IMG/VR virus record: IMGVR_UViG_3300014205_000170
Span: 320,001-384,000 of that record
DNA: 64,000 bases
Direction: 5' to 3' (one strand)
Origin: a virus
Taxonomy: Duplodnaviria; Caudoviricetes
Positions 17,135 to 37,416 of the stretch are shown here, one piece after another. Numbering within the stretch: position 1 is the first letter of the stretch; every line of letters begins with the position of its first letter. The notes under the pieces are model-generated. The model did not search any database. It saw only the letters and a program-made list of their open reading frames with translations, and was not told the DNA's origin. The position numbers and the translations under genes were made by a program.

Positions 17135-17937
17135 TGGAAACAGTTAAATTTATAAATACAGAATTACCTGACCTTATTGAGTTAAAAGGCATTAAACAAA
17201 CTTACGATAACAACAAGAAAATAGTTCTTGATAATTTAGATTTACTTATAGAAGACAAACCAAATGCAGCACAATCAGTAGCTATATTAGGAGAGTCCGG
17301 ATGTGGTAAATCAACACTTTTAAGATATATTTGTGGTTTACAAATACCAACAGAAGGAGATGTTTTAATTCGTGGTAAAAAAATCGAACGCAAAGATAGA
17401 ACCGGAATGGTATTCCAACAATACTCGTCTTTGCCTTGGTTAACGGTTTTAGATAATGTTGCACTCGGATTAAAAATTCAAGGAATTGCAAGAAGCGAAA
17501 GAGAAGACCGAGCCATGGAAATGATACGTACTGTAGGTTTAGAAGGTCATGAAAATAAGTATGCAATGTATCCTTCTTTATCTGGAGGTCAATTACAAAG
17601 AGTAGCCATTGGAAGAAGTTTATTGACCAATCCTGACATGATTGTAATGGATGAGCCATTTGGAGCTTTAGACATTAACACTAGGTCTAAAATGCAGGAT
17701 ATGATGCTAAAAATATTGGAAAAATATCAACCAACAGTTGTGTTTGTAACACATGATATTGCGGAAGCTGTATATGTAGCTGATGATGTTTTTATTATGA
17801 AAGCAAATCCTGGACAAATTGTAAAACATATAAAAGTAAGCGAAATGATTTTGGGTCCAAAAACTCGTTTAACAAAAAGAAGCAAAGAATTCATTGATAC
17901 TGTTTGTATGATTGAAGATTTTATGACAAGTATGTAA
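17134..17937 (+). CDS. ABC transporter ATP-binding subunit (SsuB/TauB-like)
   Basis: GESGCGKST, LSGGQLQR, MDEPFGALD, VTHD. Confidence 0.95.
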   Translation: METVKFINTELPDLIELKGIKQTYDNNKKIVLDNLDLLIEDKPNAAQSVAILGESGCGKSTLLRYICGLQIPTEGDVLIRGKKIERKDRTGMVFQQYSSLPWLTVLDNVALGLKIQGIARSEREDRAMEMIRTVGLEGHENKYAMYPSLSGGQLQRVAIGRSLLTNPDMIVMDEPFGALDINTRSKMQDMMLKILEKYQPTVVFVTHDIAEAVYVADDVFIMKANPGQIVKHIKVSEMILGPKTRLTKRSKEFIDTVCMIEDFMTSM

Positions 17938-17938
17938 T

Positions 17939-18706
17939 ATGCAAAAAATCTTTTTTATCATATTGTTTTTTATATCCTTATCAGGATATTCAAACAAAGA
18001 TTCAATTAATGTTGATACAACTAAATGTAAAATCGAAAGTTTTTATGAAGTAAATTTATCAAGTAGAAATATTTGGAGAGGAATCGATTTTGGAAATTAC
18101 AGTCCTTGTGTGTTTGGATTAGTTGGAATTACATATAAAAAACTTGAAATAGGTGCTTATGGAATTACATCTCTAACTGGAACTAACATTGGATATGGCA
18201 ATACTTTTAATGTTTATTCAGCATTAAAATTTAAATACATTTCTTTCTATATTGAAGATTATTATTTTAACGGTGATATTTCTAATATTCAAACAGATTA
18301 TCTAGATTGGAATAATACACATTTTCTTGAAAATAGAATAAAAATTGAGCATAAAGGATTTCATCTTATAGGTGGTTATACACTTGCCGGTGGTAAATTT
18401 TACAACATAACTTCACCTTTTAATAATACACAAGCAGTATATTTAGAAGTTGGATACAAACTTAAACATTGGTCTTTATCTATTGGTGGAATTACTGGAC
18501 CTAGCGCTTTAAATTTTCACGACAAAGAGGGGATAACAAACATTCTTTTAAAACATAAAAGTGAGATACAAAAATTAGGAAACCTACCAGTTGAAATTGG
18601 AATGTGTTATAATCCTAATTACAATAATATTGCACCAAAAGGTATTCCTCGTTATGGATACGGAAATAATGCATTTAATTTTTTAATAACAATCATATTA
18701 ATTTAA
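17939..18706 (+). CDS. Putative outer-membrane beta-barrel protein
   Basis: Signal peptide; SRNIWRGID motif; alternating aromatic/Gly beta strands. Confidence 0.55.
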   Translation: MQKIFFIILFFISLSGYSNKDSINVDTTKCKIESFYEVNLSSRNIWRGIDFGNYSPCVFGLVGITYKKLEIGAYGITSLTGTNIGYGNTFNVYSALKFKYISFYIEDYYFNGDISNIQTDYLDWNNTHFLENRIKIEHKGFHLIGGYTLAGGKFYNITSPFNNTQAVYLEVGYKLKHWSLSIGGITGPSALNFHDKEGITNILLKHKSEIQKLGNLPVEIGMCYNPNYNNIAPKGIPRYGYGNNAFNFLITIILI

Positions 18707-20969: not shown

Positions 20970-21248
20970 ATGAAAACATTCATTATAAAATATAAATGTC
21001 AATTTTGTTCTCGGTTAAACTTTGAAAAACCGATGCCTCATAAATGTGTTGGTGGTTATCGAAGAAGAAAACTCATTTGGCACCAATATTTAGTACCTAA
21101 CCAAATTGTTCTGGTTGAAAAATTTTTCCCCGATAATCCAAGAAAAAACGATTATTATTTCATTTTAAAAAACACATTACCATTTTTTTCTTTAAATTCG
21201 TATCTAATAAAACGAAAAGGAGAAAAAAATAATGAAGAAACTATTTAA
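20970..21248 (+). CDS. Hypothetical protein (CxxC...HxC)
   Basis: 92-aa ORF. Confidence 0.4.
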   Translation: MKTFIIKYKCQFCSRLNFEKPMPHKCVGGYRRRKLIWHQYLVPNQIVLVEKFFPDNPRKNDYYFILKNTLPFFSLNSYLIKRKGEKNNEETI

Positions 21249-22056
21249 AAATGACTGGGTTTCATTTTACATTGGTATTGACAGAAGTAGGTTTACTTTA
21301 AGTCCAGCTTCTTATTTTGATGAAAGATTCTACATCATTTTAACCCCAACTCTATTAATTCCTATTATAGGTGTGTTTTTTACCGGTTTAAGCTTCTGGT
21401 CTCTTGTATGGTTATTATTCATTCCATATGGTTATGGATGTCTATATATTCATCTTCCTATATATTCAGGTCTTGACGAATGTGACCCTCCGGAATATGG
21501 TTTTTATTTTTTTGGAGAAAATCTTTTAAGAATAAATTCATTTGTTGTTTGTAGGGGGAAAACTAGTAATAAATACTTTAACATGCCATGGTATTGGGTT
21601 TGGGAACGAACTAGTAAATTAAAAAAAGATGGTACTTGGCAACATGATTTGAGAAAAAAGAAATTTGATTTTTATACTAAAGAATGGGAAAACGAAGTTT
21701 GGAAAGAAGAATATCCGTTTACTTATATTTTAAAGAATGGTAATATACAACAAAGACTAGCGATAATTACTGTGCATGAAATGGAATGGCGTTGGAAAGC
21801 TTTAAAAATTTTACCATTTCCACGGATGATTCGTAAAAGTATCGATATTCAATTTGAATATGGGGGTCCAATTGAAAGAGAAATATTTTTTGAAAAACAA
21901 GGAAATAAATCCAAGTATTTAGAAAAATACACCGGAGAAGTTGGTGAAAGAACTGGAGGTTGGAAAGGCGGAACCACTGGGTGTAGTTACAGTATGCGAC
22001 AAAATGAAACTCCTCTTGAAACTTTAAGAAGAATGGAAAAAGAAAGAAAATTTTAG
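21232..22056 (+). CDS. Hypothetical protein with hydrophobic segment
   Basis: 274 aa; EVGERTGGWKGGTTGC C-terminal motif. Confidence 0.7.
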   Translation: MKKLFKNDWVSFYIGIDRSRFTLSPASYFDERFYIILTPTLLIPIIGVFFTGLSFWSLVWLLFIPYGYGCLYIHLPIYSGLDECDPPEYGFYFFGENLLRINSFVVCRGKTSNKYFNMPWYWVWERTSKLKKDGTWQHDLRKKKFDFYTKEWENEVWKEEYPFTYILKNGNIQQRLAIITVHEMEWRWKALKILPFPRMIRKSIDIQFEYGGPIEREIFFEKQGNKSKYLEKYTGEVGERTGGWKGGTTGCSYSMRQNETPLETLRRMEKERKF

Positions 22057-22128
22057 TAAAAGCTTTAAATTTTAAAACTTTTTCTTAACTTTAACGTATA
22101 ATAAGAAAAATAGACTACTTATAATTAT

Positions 22129-22215
22129 ATGATTACTAAAAATACATATCACTATTTGACACTTAATGTGGTCGTGGCGCACTTTTTACAAGTCGTCCAG
22201 CCGGACTATATTTAA
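22129..22215 (+). CDS. Val-rich attenuator leader peptide MITKNTYHYLTLNVVVAHFLQVVQPDYI
   Basis: 28 codons with GTG GTC GTG and GTC GTC; directly upstream of terminator and ValRS. Confidence 0.8.
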   Translation: MITKNTYHYLTLNVVVAHFLQVVQPDYI

Positions 22216-22269
22216 ACTTTAGTGTATTATAATACATTCAGACTCCGGCTAAACAAGTCGGAGTTTTTT
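22199..22269 (+). promoter_or_regulatory. Attenuator (antiterminator/terminator) of valS
   Basis: Terminator GACTCCGGCT(22241-50)/AGTCGGAGTT(22256-65) plus T-run; AGCCGGA(22199-205) pairs perfectly with TCCGGCT(22244-50). Confidence 0.8.
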
Positions 22270-22289
22270 ATTTTTAAAAAATTAATTTT

Positions 22290-23642
22290 ATGAAAACAGA
22301 TAATAAATACAAAATAGATATGCCACCACCAACGATAAGTGGTAAATTACATATGGGTCACGCTTTTTCTTATACACAAATGGATTTTATAGCGCGATAT
22401 CAACGAATGAAAAATAAAGAGTTGATTTACCCATTTGGTTATGATAACAATGGAATACCAACAGAAAAGTTTGCTTACAAAAAAAGAATAACAGATACAC
22501 AAAAGATAATCGAACTTTCAAATGAAACTTCTAAAATGTATATGGAATTTTTCAATAATATAAATATGGGGTTTTCTAATCATAGTTATAACACATTTGA
22601 TAAGCTTTCCACTGAAATTGCCTTACTGTCTTTTTATGACCTCAAAGAGAAAGGGTTGCTTTATAAAGGAAAAGAAAATTATTCTTTTTGTACTTCTTGT
22701 AATAAATCGATTCCTAATTCTGAAATTGAAAATAATAAACACATTAGAGATAATGGTGATATTATTGAAAAAGAAGGGGAAGGTTATTTTATTAAAACCA
22801 AAGACTTTAAACAAGAACTTATAGAACAAATTGAAAAAATAGAATGGAAACCTGAAAAATTCAAGAATAGAATTTTAAGTTGGATTAATGATATGGATAG
22901 AGATTGGTCAATTGCTAGACGCAGAGATTATGGAATTTCAATTCCAGGAGAATCTGAACTAAAGTTTGATACATGGTTTACCTCTTCTTTAACTCCTCAA
23001 ATAGCATGGGCATCTCATACCGGTATTGCTTCTTTAGAATGTCCTATTTTTGATTTAAGATTTCAAGCACATGATATTATTAGTACTTGGGCGCTATATA
23101 CCATCATTAAATCTTATCACCACAATAAACAAATACCATGGAAACAGATTATTATCACTGGACATGCGCTTGATAAAAATGGTGATAAACTTGCAAAGAG
23201 TAAAGGAAATTGTACCACCACTGATTATTACATAAAAGAATTTGGTGGAGAAGGAATAAGATATTGGGCAGCTCAAACTCAAATTGGAACCGATACATTA
23301 TTAGATGATGAAACAATGAAAAATTGTAAAAAGCTTATGATTAAACTTAAAAATGCATATAAATTCATAGAGTTTCAAAAATCCAAAGAATGGCTTGGTT
23401 TCAATAAAGAGAAAGAAATTGAGTGGGGAACAATTAAAATAAAAATAGAAGAATATTTTGAACAAGGAGATTGGGCAAAAGCATTTGAAGAATTGTTTAA
23501 TTTCTTCTGGAAAAGATTTTGCGATATTTTTATTGAAGATTCAAAAAAAGAGAGTTGTTCACAAAGCTTAGAGCTAATTTTAAATGAAATGATGATTTAT
23601 TGGCAAATTTTCTTCCCAAAAATTCAAGAAAACATAAAATAA
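22290..23642 (+). CDS. valS: Compact valyl-tRNA synthetase lacking the CP1 editing domain and C-terminal coiled coil
   Basis: DMPPPTISGKLHMGH (HIGH), DWSIARRR.YG, FDTWFTSS, QAHDII..W, KLAKSKGN (KMSKS); Val leader upstream; only 450 aa. Confidence 0.8.
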   Translation: MKTDNKYKIDMPPPTISGKLHMGHAFSYTQMDFIARYQRMKNKELIYPFGYDNNGIPTEKFAYKKRITDTQKIIELSNETSKMYMEFFNNINMGFSNHSYNTFDKLSTEIALLSFYDLKEKGLLYKGKENYSFCTSCNKSIPNSEIENNKHIRDNGDIIEKEGEGYFIKTKDFKQELIEQIEKIEWKPEKFKNRILSWINDMDRDWSIARRRDYGISIPGESELKFDTWFTSSLTPQIAWASHTGIASLECPIFDLRFQAHDIISTWALYTIIKSYHHNKQIPWKQIIITGHALDKNGDKLAKSKGNCTTTDYYIKEFGGEGIRYWAAQTQIGTDTLLDDETMKNCKKLMIKLKNAYKFIEFQKSKEWLGFNKEKEIEWGTIKIKIEEYFEQGDWAKAFEELFNFFWKRFCDIFIEDSKKESCSQSLELILNEMMIYWQIFFPKIQENIK

Positions 23643-23697
23643 AACTGAAATTATTCTATTGATTTATAGAGAATTAAGAAAAAAAACATAAAAAAAC

Positions 23698-23757
23698 TTT
23701 GTTTTATTGAAACTTTACCTTAAATTTGACGTTAGAATATAAAATTGTACTATTTAT
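23698..23757 (+). promoter_or_regulatory. Stacked putative promoters of the tRNA-array leader
   Basis: TTTG(23698)-N19-TAAATTTG(23721); GAAAC(23709)-N16-CGTT(23730); CTATTTAT(23750). Confidence 0.55.
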
Positions 23758-23826
23758 TATAAGTTGAACCCCATATAAATGGGAGATACAGTGCGGGGTC
23801 TCTCACAGCTTATTTAGAATTAGAAA

Positions 23827-23928
23827 ATGAAAAATGTAAATACATACACGGTTAATACACTAAGACAATTAGTGTTAGAACAACTTATAGAAAGTTGTCC
23901 AGCTGGGATATGTTCGTTTACAAGTTAA
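23827..23928 (+). CDS. Mixed-codon attenuator leader peptide MKNVNTYTVNTLRQLVLEQLIESCPAGICSFTS
   Basis: 33 codons; ACG, CTA, AGA, TTA, GAA, CTT and ATA match downstream tRNA anticodons. Confidence 0.7.
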   Translation: MKNVNTYTVNTLRQLVLEQLIESCPAGICSFTS

Positions 23929-23984
23929 TTATATATAACTAAACGTTCTTCAAGAACCCCGGCTTTAAAAGGTCGGGGTTTTTT
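23901..23984 (+). promoter_or_regulatory. Attenuator of the 11-tRNA array
   Basis: Terminator AACCCCGGCT(23955-64)/GGTCGGGGTT(23971-80) plus T-run; AGCTGGG(23901-07) pairs with CCCGGCT(23958-64). Confidence 0.75.
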
Positions 23985-23998
23985 GTTTTATTGATATT

Positions 23999-24070
23999 GC
24001 CTTATTAGCTCAGTTGTAAGAGCGCTCGTTTCGTAAACGAGAGGTCATCAGGTCGAACTGATATGAGGCT
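23999..24070 (+). tRNA. tRNA-Thr(CGT), atypical T-loop
   Basis: Acceptor GCCTTAT/ATGAGGC; anticodon arm CTCGT-TTCGTAA-ACGAG; T-loop GTCGAA. Confidence 0.75.
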
Positions 24071-24081
24071 CAAAAAAATAT

Positions 24082-24168
24082 GCCTTCGTGGTGAAATTGG
24101 ACAGAGACACAAGGGTCTTAAAAACCCTCGGATTTAATTCCATGCGGATTCGAGTTCCGCCGAAGGTA
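24082..24168 (+). tRNA. tRNA-Leu(TAA)
   Basis: AGGGT-CTTAAAA-ACCCT; long variable arm. Confidence 0.9.
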
Positions 24169-24181
24169 CAAAAAAAGAGAA

Positions 24182-24349
24182 ATGGGAAAAGTAGAAAAGA
24201 AAAAATTAAGATTACAAGAAAGGATTCAAACTTTAGAAAATGAATTAAGAACTTCTTTGACAAAAAAAACATCTGATGTAAAAGAAATCAATGTTGCTGT
24301 TCATCAAAGAAAAATTTATGATTTAAAATTAGAATTACAAAAAATGTAA
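24182..24349 (+). CDS. Small coiled-coil hypothetical protein (55 aa; not in ORF track)
   Basis: MGKVEKKKLRLQERIQTLENELRTSL...QKM fills the gap between tRNAs. Confidence 0.55.
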   Translation: MGKVEKKKLRLQERIQTLENELRTSLTKKTSDVKEINVAVHQRKIYDLKLELQKM

Positions 24350-24355
24350 CAACAC

Positions 24356-24429
24356 GCCTTCGTAGCACAACGGATTAGTGTCTCTGTTTTCTAAACAGGT
24401 GGGTGGAGGTTCGAATCCTCTCGAAGGTA
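24356..24429 (+). tRNA. tRNA-Arg(TCT)
   Basis: TCTGT-TTTCTAA-ACAGG; GGTTCGAATCC T-arm. Confidence 0.85.
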
Positions 24430-24449
24430 CAAATGGTTCTTTGACATAT

Positions 24450-24534
24450 GCCAGAATGGTGAAATCGTGTAGACACACCATCCTCAAAAGATGGCGCTAT
24501 AAAAAGCGTGAGAGTTCGAATCTCTCTTCTGGTA
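24450..24534 (+). tRNA. tRNA-Leu(CAA)
   Basis: CCATC-CTCAAAA-GATGG; long variable arm. Confidence 0.9.
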
Positions 24535-24539
24535 CAATA

Positions 24540-24614
24540 GCTCCCTTAGCTCAGCTGGTTAGCAGCATCAGACTCATAATCTGAGGGTCGTTGGTTCGAG
24601 CCCAACAGGGAGCA
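24540..24614 (+). tRNA. tRNA-Ile2/Met(CAT)
   Basis: TCAGA-CTCATAA-TCTGA; paired G1-C72, so not an initiator; Ile2 versus Met unresolved. Confidence 0.85.
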
Positions 24615-24619
24615 CAAAT

Positions 24620-24704
24620 GTTACGGTATGCAAACTGGCTGAAGCACCTAGATTTTCAATCTAGTTTCGAAAGAAAATTGCAGGTTCGAACCCCGTCCGT
24701 AATA
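24620..24704 (+). tRNA. tRNA with Glu(TTC) anticodon and long variable arm
   Basis: CTAGA-TTTTCAA-TCTAG; 15-nt variable region with TTTC-GAAA-GAAA hairpin. Confidence 0.75.
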
Positions 24705-24709
24705 CAAAT

Positions 24710-24784
24710 GGCCACATAGCTCAATCGCGTTGGAGCAGGATGCTTATATCATCAAGGTTGGGAGTTCAAATCTCTCTGTGGCTA
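24710..24784 (+). tRNA. tRNA-Ile(TAT)
   Basis: GATG-CTTATAT-CATC; acceptor GGCCACA/TGTGGCT. Confidence 0.85.
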
Positions 24785-24797
24785 CAAAAAAATAAAT

Positions 24798-24879
24798 GCT
24801 CCGTTGGCGGAATGCAGACGCACTTGGCTTAGGACCAAGCTCTCGAAAGGGAATGAAGATTCGAATTCTTCACGGAGTA
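24798..24879 (+). tRNA. tRNA-Leu(TAG)
   Basis: CTTGG-CTTAGGA-CCAAG; long variable arm. Confidence 0.85.
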
Positions 24880-24959
24880 CAAAATTGTTCTTTGAATATT
24901 TGAAATACATGTTATTTTAGAAATATAGTGTGTATAACATTTTTTGTCTATTTATAATC

Positions 24960-25421
24960 ATGAGAAATGATATAATAAAACAAAAAAAAATAATTTTGAA
25001 ATTAATAAATGAAAATAGACCAAAATCATTTATTTGTAAGTTTTTAGATTGTAGACCTCTTACGTTAGATAATTATTTAAAAAAGTGGAACATAAATTAT
25101 GTTGGGAATAAAGGAGGAAAGGGATATAAAATTTCACCGATAAAAAAAACAGCTATTCAATATATGAATAGCACTGGACATATAAGTTCTTATAAATTAG
25201 GGAAAAAACTTATAGAAGATGGATTAAAAGAAAAAAAATGCGAATGTTGTAATTTAACAAAATGGATAAATAAAGACATACCTTTAGAATTACATCACAA
25301 AGATGGAAATAGGTTTAATAATGAATTACAAAATTTACAATTATTATGTCCTAATTGTCATGCTTTAACTGAAAATTATGGTAGCAAAAATAAAAAAAAT
25401 AAAAATGGCCCATTCGTCTAG
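24960..25421 (+). CDS. HNH endonuclease
   Basis: CECC...LELHHKDGNRFNN.LQNLQLLCPNCH; ATG 24960 preferred over GTG 24930. Confidence 0.85.
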   Translation: MRNDIIKQKKIILKLINENRPKSFICKFLDCRPLTLDNYLKKWNINYVGNKGGKGYKISPIKKTAIQYMNSTGHISSYKLGKKLIEDGLKEKKCECCNLTKWINKDIPLELHHKDGNRFNNELQNLQLLCPNCHALTENYGSKNKKNKNGPFV

Positions 25422-25479
25422 GGGTTTAGGACGCTGCCCTTTCACGGCAGAAACACGGATTCGAATTCCGTATGGGCTA
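25407..25479 (+). tRNA. tRNA-Glu(TTC)
   Basis: CTGCC-CTTTCAC-GGCAG. Confidence 0.9.
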
Positions 25480-25488
25480 CAATAAAAT

Positions 25489-25561
25489 GCTCTTATCGAC
25501 AAGTGGTTTAAGTCACCGCTTTCTCAAAGCGGAGTCACGGGTTCAAGTCCCGTTAAGAGTA
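25489..25561 (+). tRNA. tRNA-Glu(CTC)
   Basis: CCGCT-TTCTCAA-AGCGG. Confidence 0.9.
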
Positions 25562-25566
25562 CAAAT

Positions 25567-25645
25567 GCCGATGTGATGTAATGGTAGCCATACTGGTTTA
25601 AGAAGCCAGTGCGAAAGCGTTTCGGTTCGAGTCCGAACATCGGTA
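25567..25645 (+). tRNA. tRNA-Leu(AAG)
   Basis: CTGGT-TTAAGAA-GCCAG; variable arm GC-GAAA-GC. Confidence 0.85.
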
Positions 25646-25661
25646 CAAAAAAAGGAAAAAA

Positions 25662-25991
25662 ATGGAAACAACAGAAGTAAAAATTAATGCAATCGAAGTA
25701 AAAAAAGAACTGTATAAAAGTAAGGTAAATGCAAAATTAAGTCATTTTGACAAACCAAACTTGTATTACACAGTAGAATTGTCTACGGGAACATATCAGT
25801 TTCCTATTGCAACTACTGTAAAAAAAACATTAACTCTAATGGATGGAGATGAAGTTATTTCAATGTTTGACATTGATAAAGCTGCTCCGGACTTAGCAGG
25901 CGCTAACTTTGGTTTAGAGGTAAAAGCCTCTGATTTGAACCGTTGGATTGAGAGAGCAATAAAGAACGACGATTTTATAAAAATCAGTTAG
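25662..25991 (+). CDS. Hypothetical protein
   Basis: 109-aa ORF. Confidence 0.65.
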   Translation: METTEVKINAIEVKKELYKSKVNAKLSHFDKPNLYYTVELSTGTYQFPIATTVKKTLTLMDGDEVISMFDIDKAAPDLAGANFGLEVKASDLNRWIERAIKNDDFIKIS

Positions 25992-26028
25992 TAGATTTTT
26001 TTGTGTTTATATTTATATATAAACGCAA

Positions 26029-26442
26029 ATGAAAAAATTTCTGTTAATATTTTTTATAGTTTTAAGTTTAGCGTGCAAATCTCAAACTAAAAATTTGTGG
26101 CAAAAAATTCCAGATGACGCAAAACATGTTTATTCTGGTGTGATAATTACAATGGTAACTGGTGATTTAGTTTATAAATATTCAAAAGGAAGAACAGGAT
26201 TAGCGGTAGGAGTTGGTTTTTTATCAGGAGTAACCGCAGGAGTGGCAAAAGAATTGATATGGGACAAGTGGATGGGAAAAGGCGTTCCGAGTAAGTGGGA
26301 TGCATTTAGTACTGCGTGGGGAGCAGGAATAGGCACTATATCACTTAGGGTAATGATAGATGTTAGAGAACGAAAGCAGTATGATGAATACTCAATAGAA
26401 AAATTAGGTAAAAAGAAAAAAAGAAGACATAGAAATGGTTAA
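26029..26442 (+). CDS. YfiM-like putative lipoprotein/membrane protein
   Basis: Signal peptide with LAC; D..KH, G..KE..D and D....WG pattern. Confidence 0.55.
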   Translation: MKKFLLIFFIVLSLACKSQTKNLWQKIPDDAKHVYSGVIITMVTGDLVYKYSKGRTGLAVGVGFLSGVTAGVAKELIWDKWMGKGVPSKWDAFSTAWGAGIGTISLRVMIDVRERKQYDEYSIEKLGKKKKRRHRNG

Positions 26443-26515
26443 CATAACAATTAATATTCAACAACAACAGCAACAACAAACTCTAAATAAGGGTTCCGGA
26501 ATTGCTTTGTCTTGA
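26435..26515 (+). CDS. Gln7 attenuator leader peptide MVNITINIQQQQQQQTLNKGSGIALS
   Basis: CAA CAA CAA CAG CAA CAA CAA at 26459-26479; ATG overlaps the end of the upstream gene. Confidence 0.85.
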   Translation: MVNITINIQQQQQQQTLNKGSGIALS

Positions 26516-26571
26516 CGTTATTAATTTAACAAATTACAAAAAGCCTGGAACTTAAAGTTTCAGGCTTTTTT
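26492..26571 (+). promoter_or_regulatory. Attenuator of the tRNA-Gln/glnS operon
   Basis: Terminator AAGCCTGGAACT(26541-52)/AGTTTCAGGCTT(26556-67) plus T-run; GGTTCCGG(26492-99) pairs with CTGGAACT(26545-52). Confidence 0.8.
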
Positions 26572-26577
26572 ATTTAT

Positions 26578-26648
26578 TGTCCTATAGTGTAATGGCAGCA
26601 CAAGAGATTTTGACTCTCTTAGTCTAGGTTCGAGTCCTAGTGGGACAA
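26578..26648 (+). tRNA. tRNA-Gln(TTG) 1
   Basis: AGAGA-TTTTGAC-TCTCT; T1-A72. Confidence 0.9.
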
Positions 26649-26653
26649 CATAT

Positions 26654-26725
26654 TCCTCGTTGGTCTAATGGCAATGACGTTGGTTTTTGACACCAAAAGT
26701 GGTAGTTCGATTCTATCACGAGGAA
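26654..26725 (+). tRNA. tRNA-Gln(TTG) 2
   Basis: TTGGT-TTTTGAC-ACCAA. Confidence 0.9.
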
Positions 26726-26730
26726 CAAAT

Positions 26731-26803
26731 TGCTCCATAGTATAATGGCCTATTATCGCTGCCTTTGAAGCAGAAGACCTTGGTTCGATTCCAAGTGGAG
26801 CAT
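26731..26803 (+). tRNA. tRNA-Gln(TTG) 3
   Basis: CTGC-CTTTGAA-GCAG. Confidence 0.85.
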
Positions 26804-26810
26804 CTAAAAT

Positions 26811-26883
26811 TGCCTTATAGTATAATGGTTATTATTCTCGTTTCTGAGACGATGAGATGTTGGTTCGAATCCAGCTTAGGTAA
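26811..26883 (+). tRNA. tRNA-Gln(CTG)
   Basis: TCGT-TTCTGAG-ACGA; one T-T mismatch in acceptor stem. Confidence 0.8.
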
Positions 26884-26906
26884 CAAACAAAAAAAATCGT
26901 AACTTT

Positions 26907-27392
26907 ATGGTTATGAAAACGAGAGAAGAACAAATAAAAAATGCTACAGTTCAAATAGGCAATACTGTTAAGGTTAATAAGCGATTATTGGATAAAAAAC
27001 TATCAATAGAACTTTTTAAAGAAACTGCGGAAGAATTATTTAAAGAACATTCAGAATATTATAAGCCAAAACATTTTAATACTATTGTTTATAAATTGTT
27101 TTCTATGAAAAACGTTTTTGTTGCAACAGCTCCATGTGAAGATTTTTTTGATAAAAAAGGAAAATGGATTACAGAAATACCAACTCGTTCACACAGAAGC
27201 TTAGAAGCATTTGATATTATTGATTCTATTCAAAATTATTTAAATGAAGGAGCATTGGTATATTTATATACATTTTATAGTATGAAACAGGATATTGTTA
27301 CAGGTTATAGAAATAATGATTTTACAGACACAATAGTAGAACCAAATGTTGATACATATTGGTGGAGATTAATAGTAAAAAAAGAAGAATAA
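26907..27392 (+). CDS. Hypothetical protein in the Gln operon
   Basis: 161-aa ORF between tRNA-Gln cluster and glnS. Confidence 0.65.
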   Translation: MVMKTREEQIKNATVQIGNTVKVNKRLLDKKLSIELFKETAEELFKEHSEYYKPKHFNTIVYKLFSMKNVFVATAPCEDFFDKKGKWITEIPTRSHRSLEAFDIIDSIQNYLNEGALVYLYTFYSMKQDIVTGYRNNDFTDTIVEPNVDTYWWRLIVKKEE

Positions 27393-27394
27393 TT

Positions 27395-29011
27395 ATGAAT
27401 TTTATTGAAGAAAAAATAATTGAAAAAGGAAATGTTGAGAAATTTAAACTTAGATTTCCACCAGAAAATAATGGCCACCTTCATGTTGGTCATGCGAAAT
27501 CCATATGTCTTAACTTTGGGTTGTCTGAAAAATACAATAGACCTTGTAATTTAAGATTTGATGATACAAATCCTTCTAATGAATCAGATGAATATACAAA
27601 GTCTATTATAAAAGATATTGAATGGTTAAATTATAAGCCGGCAGAAATTTTACATACTTCTGACTATTTCTCTTTTCTTTATGAATCAGCCATAAAATTA
27701 ATCAAAAAAGGATTGGCATATGTTGACGATTCAACATCAGAAGAAATTGCAAAATTAAAAGGTACTCCAACTATGTCTGGAAAACCGTCTCCTTATTATT
27801 CGCGTACCGTTGAAGAAAATTTAGATTTGTTCGAAAGAATGAAAAACGGAGAGTTTACAGAAGGTTCAAAAATTCTTAGAGCTAAAATTGATATGGCTTC
27901 TCCTAATATGATTTTAAGAGACCCAGTGATGTATAGAATTATAAATACAACACATCATCATACAGGAGATGTTTGGAAAATTTATCCAATGTATGATTTC
28001 GCACATCCTTTATCAGATTATACTGAAGGAATCACAGATTCTTTATGTACTTTAGAATTTGAAGTTCATAGACCACTTTATAATTGGTTTTTGGAAAATT
28101 TGAATTTACCAAATCCATTGCCGGAAGAAACAGAATTTGCTCGTTTAAACATTGAATATACAGTACTTTCAAAACGTAAATTAAAAAGATTGGTTGAAGA
28201 GAAATTTGTTTCAGGATGGGACGACCCAAGAATGCCAACCATTTCAGGATTAAGAAGAAGAGGATATACTCCAACAGCTATTAAAGATTTTTGTGAACGA
28301 GTTGGCGTTACAAAAAAAGAATCTTTAATAAGTTATTTGCTTTTAGAAGAATGTTTAAGAAATGACTTAAATAAATCTACCAATAGATTTATGGGAATAA
28401 TGAATCCTGTTAAAATAACAATTACAAACTGGAATAATGGCGTTGAAATGGTTGAAGTTGAGAACAATCCAGAGGATGAAACTGCCGGAAAAAGATTAAT
28501 TCCTTTTTCAAAAGAATTGTGGATTGATAGAGACGATTTTAGAGAAGAAGCTGATAATAAATTTTTCAGATTAAAATTAGGGAGTGAAGTTAGATTGAAA
28601 GGTGCTTATGTCATAAAAGCAGAAGAAGTGATTAAGAATGGAGATGTTATTACGGAAATAAAATGTACATATGACCCTTTAACGAAATCTGGATTAGGCA
28701 CTAACAGAAAAGTTAAAGGAACAATTCATTGGGTTTCTTGCGAACATGGAGTTAAGGCAGAAGTTAGAGAATATTCAAAATTATTCACTCATATCACACC
28801 GGATAAGTCTGAAGATGATTTTGTAAACTATATTGATGCCAACTCTTTGGTTATTAATAACAATGCAATATTTGAACCGGCTGTTTTAAATTGTATTCCT
28901 GGAAAACCAGTTCAAATGATAAGAGTAGGTTATTACGTAAGAGATACGAATGATGAATCTCTTATTTTTAATAAGACCGTGTCTCTTAAGGAGGATAAGT
29001 ATAAATCATAG
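27395..29011 (+). CDS. glnS: Glutaminyl-tRNA synthetase
   Basis: RFPPENNGHLHVGHAKS, NLRFDDTNP, IYPMYDFAH, LCTLEF, VLSKRKL, WDDPRMPT, KVKGTIHWV; start at ATG 27395. Confidence 0.95.
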   Translation: MNFIEEKIIEKGNVEKFKLRFPPENNGHLHVGHAKSICLNFGLSEKYNRPCNLRFDDTNPSNESDEYTKSIIKDIEWLNYKPAEILHTSDYFSFLYESAIKLIKKGLAYVDDSTSEEIAKLKGTPTMSGKPSPYYSRTVEENLDLFERMKNGEFTEGSKILRAKIDMASPNMILRDPVMYRIINTTHHHTGDVWKIYPMYDFAHPLSDYTEGITDSLCTLEFEVHRPLYNWFLENLNLPNPLPEETEFARLNIEYTVLSKRKLKRLVEEKFVSGWDDPRMPTISGLRRRGYTPTAIKDFCERVGVTKKESLISYLLLEECLRNDLNKSTNRFMGIMNPVKITITNWNNGVEMVEVENNPEDETAGKRLIPFSKELWIDRDDFREEADNKFFRLKLGSEVRLKGAYVIKAEEVIKNGDVITEIKCTYDPLTKSGLGTNRKVKGTIHWVSCEHGVKAEVREYSKLFTHITPDKSEDDFVNYIDANSLVINNNAIFEPAVLNCIPGKPVQMIRVGYYVRDTNDESLIFNKTVSLKEDKYKS

Positions 29012-34016: not shown

Positions 34017-34088
34017 GCCCTGATAGTTCAATGGATAGAACAAGAGTTTTCTAAACTCTTAATCCAAGTTCGATTCTTGGTCGGGGTA
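34017..34088 (+). tRNA. tRNA-Arg(TCT)
   Basis: AGAGT-TTTCTAA-ACTCT; acceptor GCCCTGA/TCGGGGT. Confidence 0.9.
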
Positions 34089-34096
34089 CACAGAAT

Positions 34097-35856: not shown

Positions 35857-37416
35857 TTAAGAGTAAACTTGTGCGTAAGTGTTCAAGTTATCAAGAAGGA
35901 TTACTCCGTAGAAACGGTTGTTAATCATTTTCTTTGCATAACGAGTCATGATACCTTTACGAGGTGTGAAATCGTTCGGGTCATAGATAGTAGCAGTTAA
36001 TTGAAGTGGAATGTATGGAGCATACACGTAACCAGCTTCCAAGAAAGTGTTACCTTTGTGACCAATCAACACAGTACCAGCAGGCATATAAGGGTCTTTG
36101 TAAACCACATATCTGTTTCCTAAGTTACCGATTTTCTCAACACCAAGGTTGTATTTTTCTGTTTCTGGAGAAGCAGAAGAATCTACGTGGAAATATTCAA
36201 GGTCATCAAATATTGCACCGGCTTCTGCTGAACAGATAATCCAGTTTGCACCACCACGTAAAGTAGCCTTGTGAATTTGAGCTGAAAGCTCGTTAATTCT
36301 TGTGATAAGAGTTTGATTCCAATCTTTTTGAGTTCCGAAGAAGTTAGCATTGTTTTTTAAACCTGCATAATCCCAACGTGCTTCAAACATAGCCTCTTGT
36401 ACAAGGTCACGGATGATTTCACGGTCGATTTCAGCAGCAATTTCTTCAGAAAGAAGAGCAGTTAACTCAGCTTCAGCATCAATTGAGTGATAAGCTTCTA
36501 AATCTTGAGCAAGTTCAGGAGTCCAGTGAGCTCTCATTTTTCTTGTAACAGTGTTAACGGTTACAGAAGAGAAACGGATTGTAAGCTCAGACATTTCTGA
36601 TTTAGCTTCAAGGTCATTGTAGATTTGGTAAGTTGGGATGAAACTAAAGTTTTGCAATAAAGCATAGTTAAAGTCTGAACCATAGATACCAGCAGGACGT
36701 ACATCAAGAACTACACTAGTACTTTGAGCAGAGAACATATCCGCACCCCATTTTTGAAGTGATGAATAATATTTAATGCTTGCACCAGCAGCAAATAAAG
36801 TTGTACCATTATATACAACAGCAGTTACAGCTGACATTGCTAATGAAGCAGATGATTGAGCTTTGCTTACATCGAAAGATGTACCTAAAGCAACTAATCT
36901 TTCGATTAATCCAGTAGTTGTATCAGCAGAACCTACAGTCACTTGTGTTCCATAAGCAGTACTTGCAGTACCAAAAGAAGTATCATAACCACGGTTATCA
37001 TAAAATCTTTCGTAAGCAGAGTTGTTGCTGAAAGTTGGACCAGCTTGATTGTTTGCAGTATTTTGAGGTGCTACTTGGTTAGTAGATACTCTTGCGTCCA
37101 TGTAGAACAATAAACCTGAAGGTAAAGCCAAAGGCTGTACAGACACGATTTCGTTCGCAAGTAAACGAGAGAAGATACGTCTTACCATAGGGAAAGCCAC
37201 TGTATCAAAACGACCTGCAGATGAATCAAGGGTAACCTCGTTCAACATATGAGAAGCTTGGTTCTCAAGTAACTGAGCAATGTTTTGTTTTTTGCCAGTA
37301 TTTAAACCTTCAAGTAAACCTGAGTTCTCCCAGTTCTTGATGATTGTTTTTCTTTGTTCGGACAAGTTTCTAAGGGTTGTTAAACCAACCTGTCCACTGT
37401 TTAATAATTCACTCAT
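35857..37416 (-). CDS. Major capsid protein (T4 gp23-like)
   Basis: LLENQ, VSVQP, ELAQDLEAYHSIDAEAEL, EIDREII, YAPYIPL, PRKGIMTRY. Confidence 0.95.
   Translation of the reverse strand: MSELLNSGQVGLTTLRNLSEQRKTIIKNWENSGLLEGLNTGKKQNIAQLLENQASHMLNEVTLDSSAGRFDTVAFPMVRRIFSRLLANEIVSVQPLALPSGLLFYMDARVSTNQVAPQNTANNQAGPTFSNNSAYERFYDNRGYDTSFGTASTAYGTQVTVGSADTTTGLIERLVALGTSFDVSKAQSSASLAMSAVTAVVYNGTTLFAAGASIKYYSSLQKWGADMFSAQSTSVVLDVRPAGIYGSDFNYALLQNFSFIPTYQIYNDLEAKSEMSELTIRFSSVTVNTVTRKMRAHWTPELAQDLEAYHSIDAEAELTALLSEEIAAEIDREIIRDLVQEAMFEARWDYAGLKNNANFFGTQKDWNQTLITRINELSAQIHKATLRGGANWIICSAEAGAIFDDLEYFHVDSSASPETEKYNLGVEKIGNLGNRYVVYKDPYMPAGTVLIGHKGNTFLEAGYVYAPYIPLQLTATIYDPNDFTPRKGIMTRYAKKMINNRFYGVILLDNLNTYAQVYS

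Follow-up and report, generated by a model that had tools for sequence, protein, structure and literature searches.

A 64,000-nucleotide (nt) window of a Caudoviricetes genome (IMG/VR record IMGVR_UViG_3300014205_000170, in which window positions 1–64,000 correspond to record positions 320001–384000) contains three units, within 7 kb, in which a short leader open reading frame (ORF), a predicted intrinsic terminator and genes for tRNAs or aminoacyl-tRNA synthetases follow one another. The source record is a complete, circular virus genome of 518,809 bases with 30% G+C and about 50 tRNA genes. The original prediction, made from the sequence of this stretch, had described the units as ribosome-stalling attenuators, and all three were found where it had placed them, with every part on the + strand (Table 1). 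It had given the leaders as 26–33 codons long, each with a strand complementary to the terminator; they encode 28, 33 and 26 amino acids (aa), and the complementary strand forms 7–9 bp with the 5′ arm of the terminator hairpin. The proposed correspondence between leader codons and downstream genes was likewise borne out: Val codons precede a valyl-tRNA synthetase (ValRS), a mixed leader precedes 11 tRNAs, and seven Gln codons precede four tRNA-Gln genes and a glutaminyl-tRNA synthetase (GlnRS).

The three units share their layout. Each terminator starts 27–28 nt past the leader stop codon, the folding z-scores range from −3.9 to −5.3, and each unit's own antiterminator duplex is more stable than every pairing with non-orthologous terminator arms. 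In unit 1, the Val codons form a block of three (22168–22176) followed by a further two (22192–22197), and the synthetase has valS as its best NCBIfam match, below the full-length cut-off. The leader of unit 2 has a sensing zone (about 23854–23892) of Thr, Leu, Arg, Glu and Ile codons together with two Gln codons, although the array behind it lacks tRNA-Gln. Its codons ACG, CTA, AGA, TTA, GAA, CTT and ATA are the exact partners of seven anticodon types in the array, which runs in the order Thr-CGT, Leu-TAA, Arg-TCT, Leu-CAA, Met/Ile2-CAT, Glu-TTC, Ile-TAT, Leu-TAG, Glu-TTC, Glu-CTC and Leu-AAG. Some of these anticodon-matching codons are rare in the phage genome, and TTG and GAG are missing from the leader. 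Four ORFs inside or after the array, and a further one in unit 3, had been omitted from the original prediction. No terminator lies between the tRNA-Gln cluster, the 161-aa ORF and the GlnRS gene.

Table 1 Features of the three units (window coordinates).
Feature	Position	Strand	Details
Unit 1 leader ORF	22129–22215	+	28 aa, five Val codons
Unit 1 antiterminator strand	22199–22205	+	7 bp with 22244–22250, −11.8 kcal/mol
Unit 1 intrinsic terminator	hairpin 22243–22263, with U tract to 22269	+	predicted
Miniature valyl-tRNA synthetase	22290–23642	+	450 aa, HIGH- and KMSKS-like motifs
Unit 2 candidate −7 promoter element, TAnnTTTG	23721–23728	+	consensus match only
Unit 2 leader ORF	23827–23928	+	33 aa
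Unit 2 antiterminator strand	23901–23907	+	7 bp (one G-U) with 23958–23964, −11.0 kcal/mol
Unit 2 intrinsic terminator	hairpin 23957–23978, with U tract to 23984	+	predicted
11-tRNA array with inserted ORFs	23999–25646	+	10 by ARAGORN, Thr-CGT at 23999 by Rfam
Inserted ORF in the array	24182–24349	+	ORF call
Inserted HNH-like ORF in the array	24930–25421	+	zinc-binding motifs
Two ORFs of unassigned function	25662–26442	+	109 and 137 aa, between array and unit 3
Unit 3 leader ORF	26435–26515	+	26 aa, seven Gln codons at 26459–26479 (six CAA, one CAG)
Unit 3 antiterminator strand	26491–26499	+	9 bp (two G-U) with 26545–26553, −10.5 kcal/mol
Unit 3 intrinsic terminator	hairpin 26543–26565, with U tract to 26571	+	predicted
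Four tRNA-Gln genes	26578–26884	+	three TTG, one CTG
ORF between tRNA-Gln and glnS	26907–27392	+	161 aa
Glutaminyl-tRNA synthetase (glnS)	27395–29011	+	538 aa, TIGR00440 above cut-off

The arrangement extends beyond the window. A terminator scan of the phage genome returned about 50 predicted terminators, of which five lie directly before tRNA genes and one before valS, all with a leader. The three units outside the window gate a Phe/Ser/Asn/His/Thr array, five tRNA-Lys genes and a mixed array of 21 genes, and nearly all tRNA genes of the genome are covered by the six units. Lone tRNA genes have no unit directly upstream; one of them, a tRNA-Arg(TCT) gene (34017–34089), has its own TAnnTTTG motif and no attenuator.

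Relatives were found via GlnRS in viral collections, giving ten further phage records with arrays, 11 in all; loci were chosen around arrays, with five lone-tRNA loci left out. An ATG-started leader ending 15–45 nt upstream accompanies each of the 47 terminators that immediately precede tRNAs in these records, and 315 of the 330 tRNAs at the array loci analysed are downstream of a unit. For the five large genomes, leaders were picked mechanically and all leader-array pairings were ranked within each genome. The true pairing came first in every case: it is the best of 120 permutations in the genome of the window (1/120), and the other four gave 1/720 once and 1/5040 three times. Cargo amino-acid types are present in their own leader in 138 of 145 cases, compared with 386 of 670 for other leaders. 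Array partition differs between lineages and leader composition follows it; a fused Glu/Tyr/Gly/Ile/Ala array, for example, is preceded by one leader with all five amino acids, and the partition in the window genome is unlike that of all other genomes compared. Single-amino-acid leaders precede ValRS, AspRS, AsnRS, IleRS (named in the relatives from its sequence start only) and GlnRS without tRNAs. Conservation of the leader peptides is limited to composition. These sequence comparisons show that leader and cargo match at the level of amino acids.

Units are also carried by LR745206.1 (635 kb) and by LR756502.1 (642 kb), which was held out from the survey. In LR756511.1, an unrelated record that was likewise held out, a GTG-started Ser/Leu/Tyr leader (locus L159, reverse strand, about 1800–1940) with a Shine-Dalgarno site and a sigma-70-type promoter stands before an array of Ser, Leu and Tyr tRNAs only. 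A scripted search of this unit gave no strong antiterminator. This unit hints at a separate origin, in a host outside the Bacteroidota. No unit was found before the 44 tRNAs of the LR756511.1 main region, the 25 tRNAs of LR756508.1, a near relative by capsid, or the 4 tRNAs of the cultured Flavobacterium phage immuto 2-6A. Inheritance from host genes found no support in a comparison confined to glnS and tRNA clusters, which did not extend to host amino-acid operons: no cargo-matching unit precedes any of the 76 closest bacterial glnS genes or any of 39 tRNA clusters in two Bacteroidota genomes.

The proposed RNA switch was analysed in 54 units, with the antiterminator strand located without reference to codons. 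For a leader and its own terminator, the mean duplex energy is −9.7 kcal/mol; leaders combined with non-orthologous terminator arms average −4.1 and shuffled sequences −3.5. When arms are exchanged between orthologous units, pairing becomes weaker (for example, −6.9 instead of −13.9 and −4.8 instead of −9.4), and the orthologs differ on both sides of the duplex; by sequence, the antiterminator and the terminator are mutually exclusive, and the pairing is maintained by compensatory change. Cargo residues are about fivefold enriched 5–9 codons upstream of the strand, but occur at background frequency once the distance is down to 2 codons. A median of 14 nt separates the last control codon from the strand (median absolute deviation 2; interquartile range 11–15), whereas the distance from this codon to the stop codon or terminator hairpin has a median absolute deviation of 7.5. 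A ribosome reaches about 12–15 nt beyond its A site, and the 14-nt spacing, equal to the leading edge of a ribosome, supports attenuation. Small hairpins in the spacers are candidate polymerase pause sites.

To model the moving ribosome, folds were truncated before the 3′ arm of the terminator and a ribosome-sized mask was placed along the leader. With the mask on the control codons, the antiterminator is predicted to hold (mean 0.91), and with the mask on the distal leader it falls to a mean minimum of 0.23; in 52 of the 54 units it is kept better on control codons than on other codons. Because the antiterminator holds on the one segment and drops on the other, the modelled sign of the switch is stall-ON. 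With no ribosome, the antiterminator is predicted in 41 of 54 units, the three of the window among them. A 1:2 protector hairpin of the four-segment subtype was not recovered; among the three units of the window, only the full-length folds of units 1 and 3 have control codons paired with segment 2.

Some units are chained. Unit 3 shows no promoter motif, its start codon is overlapped by the stop region of the preceding 137-aa ORF, and there is no terminator between unit 3 and unit 2, whose sensing zone holds the two Gln codons. Where neither a promoter motif nor a terminator lies between adjacent units, preceding leaders hold 37 residues of the following cargo against 1.5 expected, a count dominated by orthologous Pro/Asp-to-Gln pairs, while pairs with a promoter motif gave 11 against 6.6. 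Both chained pairs of the window genome show nested codons when taken separately (2 versus 0.03 and 2 versus 0.07). From this pattern, the first gate would respond to its own amino acids as well as to that of the next unit, leaving selection to the second.

TAnnTTTG is the consensus of the −7 promoter element of Bacteroidota. By consensus match only, it occurs 5′ of 32 of 53 leaders, against 5.3 in shuffled sequences; the copy before unit 2 has a TTT/TTG element upstream, and a stable hairpin (−13.7 kcal/mol, 23762–23812) lies between this motif and leader 2. The nearest bacterial GlnRS proteins are from Bacteroidota (55–58%), and the best cultured match of the T4-like major capsid gene (35857–37416) is a Flavobacterium phage (35%). 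Because of these relationships and the excess of TAnnTTTG, the host is inferred to belong to the Bacteroidota. The phage genome has three sigma-70-like genes, and no RNA polymerase beta subunit was found in it. Genome-wide, gene-end terminators of the phage are confined to a narrow band 19–26 nt beyond the stop codon, and the phyla listed with runaway transcription do not include Bacteroidota (PMC13323073); this spacing and the phylum class are consistent with coupled transcription and translation.

Taken together, these results make it very likely that each unit is a ribosome-mediated transcription attenuator, with leader translation, termination, regulation and promoters inferred from sequence, and the phage probably makes its tRNAs and synthetases only when ribosomes decode the matching codons slowly. 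Host RNA polymerase would start at a Bacteroidota-type promoter and transcribe the leader ORF with a ribosome trailing behind. The 5′ arm of the emerging terminator would pair with the 7–10 nt strand in the distal leader, preventing the terminator hairpin. If the control codons were decoded fast, the ribosome would strip this strand, and the terminator would fold and end transcription ahead of the tRNA or synthetase genes; slow decoding of these codons would instead leave the leading edge of the ribosome just short of the strand, allowing read-through and synthesis of the matching tRNAs or synthetase. Termination would need the ribosome to be crossing the distal leader as the terminator emerges, rather than parked at the stop codon. 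The promoter-less units (Gln in the window, Lys elsewhere) would sit behind a unit whose leader holds their codons, and the six units would together place decoding capacity under negative feedback.

Several observations weigh against this reading. Equilibrium folding stands in for a kinetic switch and the ribosome footprint is assumed; the analysis pinpointed no pause site; and a unit is missing immediately upstream of seven other synthetase-like genes of the genome. As most relatives belong to a single lineage, the 54 units do not count as independent cases. Watson–Crick matches between codons and anticodons are not enriched overall (159 observed, 173 expected, z −1.7), and codon-specific sensing is not claimed; the covariation of leader codons and cargo among relatives, which the original prediction had proposed as a check, was found in the permutations by amino acid, but not overall at this finer level. 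A mask at the stop codon leaves the antiterminator broken in only 16–25 of 54 units, which makes termination dependent on timing. The idea that finishing the leader masks the strand was thus upheld in part: the antiterminator is predicted to be broken with the ribosome 3–10 codons before the stop, but once the ribosome has reached the stop, at least about half of the units could form it again. Unit 1 fits the scheme least neatly: the block of three Val codons ends 25 nt before the antiterminator strand, and the other two Val codons lie where stalling would promote termination instead. The core of the original prediction, a ribosome-stalling attenuator with cargo-matched codons, nevertheless stands on the covariation, the compensated pairing and the ribosome-sized spacing.

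The same evidence bears on two other accounts of the units. Constitutive leaky terminators or processing signals, with leaders that are untranslated by-products or small functional peptides, could be suspected where short ORFs come easily, as in AT-rich DNA, and five other terminators of the genome do have a short upstream ORF. Such an arrangement fails, however, on leader composition that tracks rearranged cargo, on the 14-nt spacing, on pairing changes at both sides of the duplex and on the nested codons, and peptides conserved in composition only speak against a function of their own; we consider it very unlikely. Alternatively, stalling might terminate transcription, or the elements might control precursor processing after transcription. 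The two Val codons in the masking zone of unit 1 would fit an opposite sign, as would the read-through predicted for the untranslated state in 41 of 54 units, but control codons are concentrated where a stall keeps the antiterminator and drop to background where it breaks (421/874 versus 91/501), and the hairpins are canonical terminators with U tracts, leaving this account very unlikely as well.

Attenuation is compatible with more than one purpose. The units may serve counter-defence, sensing cleavage of tRNAs by anticodon nucleases or toxins and answering with resistant replacements. Phage tRNAs rescue infection from PARIS, retron-Eco7 and PrrC (PMC11464382, PMC11555353), extra tRNA would be useful only if the tRNA itself is short, Lys and Gln have dedicated units with 4–5 divergent copies, and an Acb3-family anti-CBASS gene precedes unit 1 while an RNA ligase follows glnS. 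This purpose is nevertheless considered less likely than not: hardly any amino acid is left without a unit, large mixed arrays account for many of them, overall matching is not codon-specific, and synthetase cargo points to limits on charging. The units may instead exert general control of tRNA supply, metering costly tRNA and synthetase synthesis to demand whatever its cause, such as a giant-phage infection that drains or destroys the host tRNA pool or begins in starved cells; we give this purpose an even chance. Near-complete code coverage, chained units, synthetase cargo and the 315 of 330 tRNAs behind a unit speak for it. Against it, other tRNA-rich megaphages (LR756508.1 and the LR756511.1 main region) lack most such units, so phage size alone does not require them, and pure amino-acid starvation would induce tRNAs that could not be charged. 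Near-complete coverage fits general supply control at least as well as an anticodon-nuclease trigger, and depletion is favoured as the driver because more tRNA helps only when tRNA is short. Sequence cannot separate tRNA cleavage, pool exhaustion and poor charging.

Several further features accompany the units. The gene directly 5′ of unit 1 (21232–22056) has a Pfam match to Acb3 (E 6e-37), a family of CBASS inhibitors, and an RNA ligase gene (PF09414; 29962–30765) just 3′ of glnS is, by family, a candidate tRNA repair enzyme. At 450 aa, the ValRS is about half the usual length, with editing and C-terminal domains apparently missing; other class I synthetases of the phage genome are likewise short, and a search of viral contigs found no ValRS relatives. 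The 161-aa ORF has no family match and no homolog in the fetched loci, and the HNH-like array ORF has homologs in fetched tRNA-bearing regions of other megaphages. In many tRNAs at 24082–25646, the first base pair is G1-U72, position 73 is A and the CCA end is not fully encoded. The first Glu-TTC tRNA of the array (24620–24705) combines a Glu anticodon with a long variable arm. Of 259 array tRNAs whose types normally have short arms, 48 are at least 82 nt long, including 11 of 20 for Lys; such long-armed tRNAs possibly have nuclease-evading or phage-synthetase-specific bodies. The CAT-anticodon tRNA (24540–24615) carries C4-G69 and C5-G68, as does lysidine tRNA-Ile2, and such a tRNA would decode ATA, a codon present in leader 2; no phage-encoded TilS was found in the genome. 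A tmRNA-like gene lies at 17780–18274 of the whole record, and tRNAs with stop anticodons (CTA, TTA) occur in several megaphages (loci L015, L017, L027 and L161). Placement of the phage in Mahaphage was considered and receives no support from the capsid. Its capsid protein is distant from those of most unit-bearing relatives, so that membership of a clade with the huge phages of PMC7162821 is not established.

Leader-peptide attenuators are known from trpL, hisL and leuL and, in multivalent form, from thrL and ilvL, and pheST of E. coli is an attenuated synthetase gene. The class has been reviewed, including His leaders before hisS paralogs in bacilli (PMC2965389). Like the trp, his, thr and ilv attenuators, the phage units combine a short control-codon leader, an alternative antiterminator and an intrinsic terminator, would sense ribosome speed and include multivalent leaders. 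Unlike those of amino-acid operons, they are viral and their cargo is tRNA genes, so that what is sensed would be the product itself; the code is covered by six units, with up to about 11 amino acids per leader, the antiterminator strand lies inside the ORF, and units are chained. Unlike the four-segment trp/his subtype, they have no consistent 1:2 protector, and an untranslated leader is therefore predicted to be ON rather than super-attenuated; as modelled, the phage switch is simpler than that of trp. Unit 1, the glnS part of unit 3 and the AspRS, AsnRS and IleRS units of relatives resemble the pheST and hisS attenuators, with the differences that they are phage-encoded and missing before the 76 bacterial glnS genes, and that glnS shares its unit with tRNA-Gln. 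T-box riboswitches also sense tRNA charging to control a terminator before synthetase genes, but they bind uncharged tRNA directly and have no leader ORF, whereas the phage units use one. A T-box or other Rfam element was rejected, as only tRNAs matched in Rfam. Loss of a tRNA would stall a ribosome but would not be expected to switch a T-box on.

In counter-defence, phage T5 uses tRNA-Lys against PARIS, and tRNA-Tyr acts against retron-Eco7 (PMC11464382, PMC11555353). The arrays would similarly be able to replace destroyed host tRNAs; the counter-defence tRNAs, in contrast, are described as driven by strong promoters, with no mention of attenuation (PMC11464382, PMC11555353). For huge phages with sets of tRNAs and synthetases, the genes are listed without their regulation, and attenuation is not mentioned (PMC7162821); the largest genomes described there, Mahaphages with predicted Bacteroidetes hosts, agree in size with the unit-bearing LR745206.1 and LR756502.1. 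Attenuated tRNA genes are absent from an attenuator survey (PMC2965389) and from a 2026 survey of phage tRNAs (PMC13015707), and a literature search that covered few subscription papers found neither attenuated tRNA genes nor phage leader-peptide attenuators. The mechanism class is thus known, of the trp/his type, and we found no description of it with tRNA-gene cargo or in a viral setting.

These findings would extend attenuation to tRNA genes and to viruses, with a feedback loop closed on the sensor's own product, and the units would supply evidence for transcription-translation coupling in Bacteroidota. As sensors of about 150 nt that report when a chosen tRNA is depleted, they could also be employed in screens for defences directed at tRNAs. 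It is conceivable, at somewhat less than even probability, that giant phages, apparently more than once, built a genome-wide network of chained attenuators that monitors the decoding of almost all amino acids and makes the corresponding tRNAs and synthetases on demand, as an inducible answer to tRNA-destroying defences. Why phages carry tRNA genes has long been an open question, with codon bias, pool depletion and counter-defence as candidate answers. Because an attenuator would report when the phage needs each tRNA, this question becomes directly testable: the conditions that open each switch would be the conditions for which the genes were kept.

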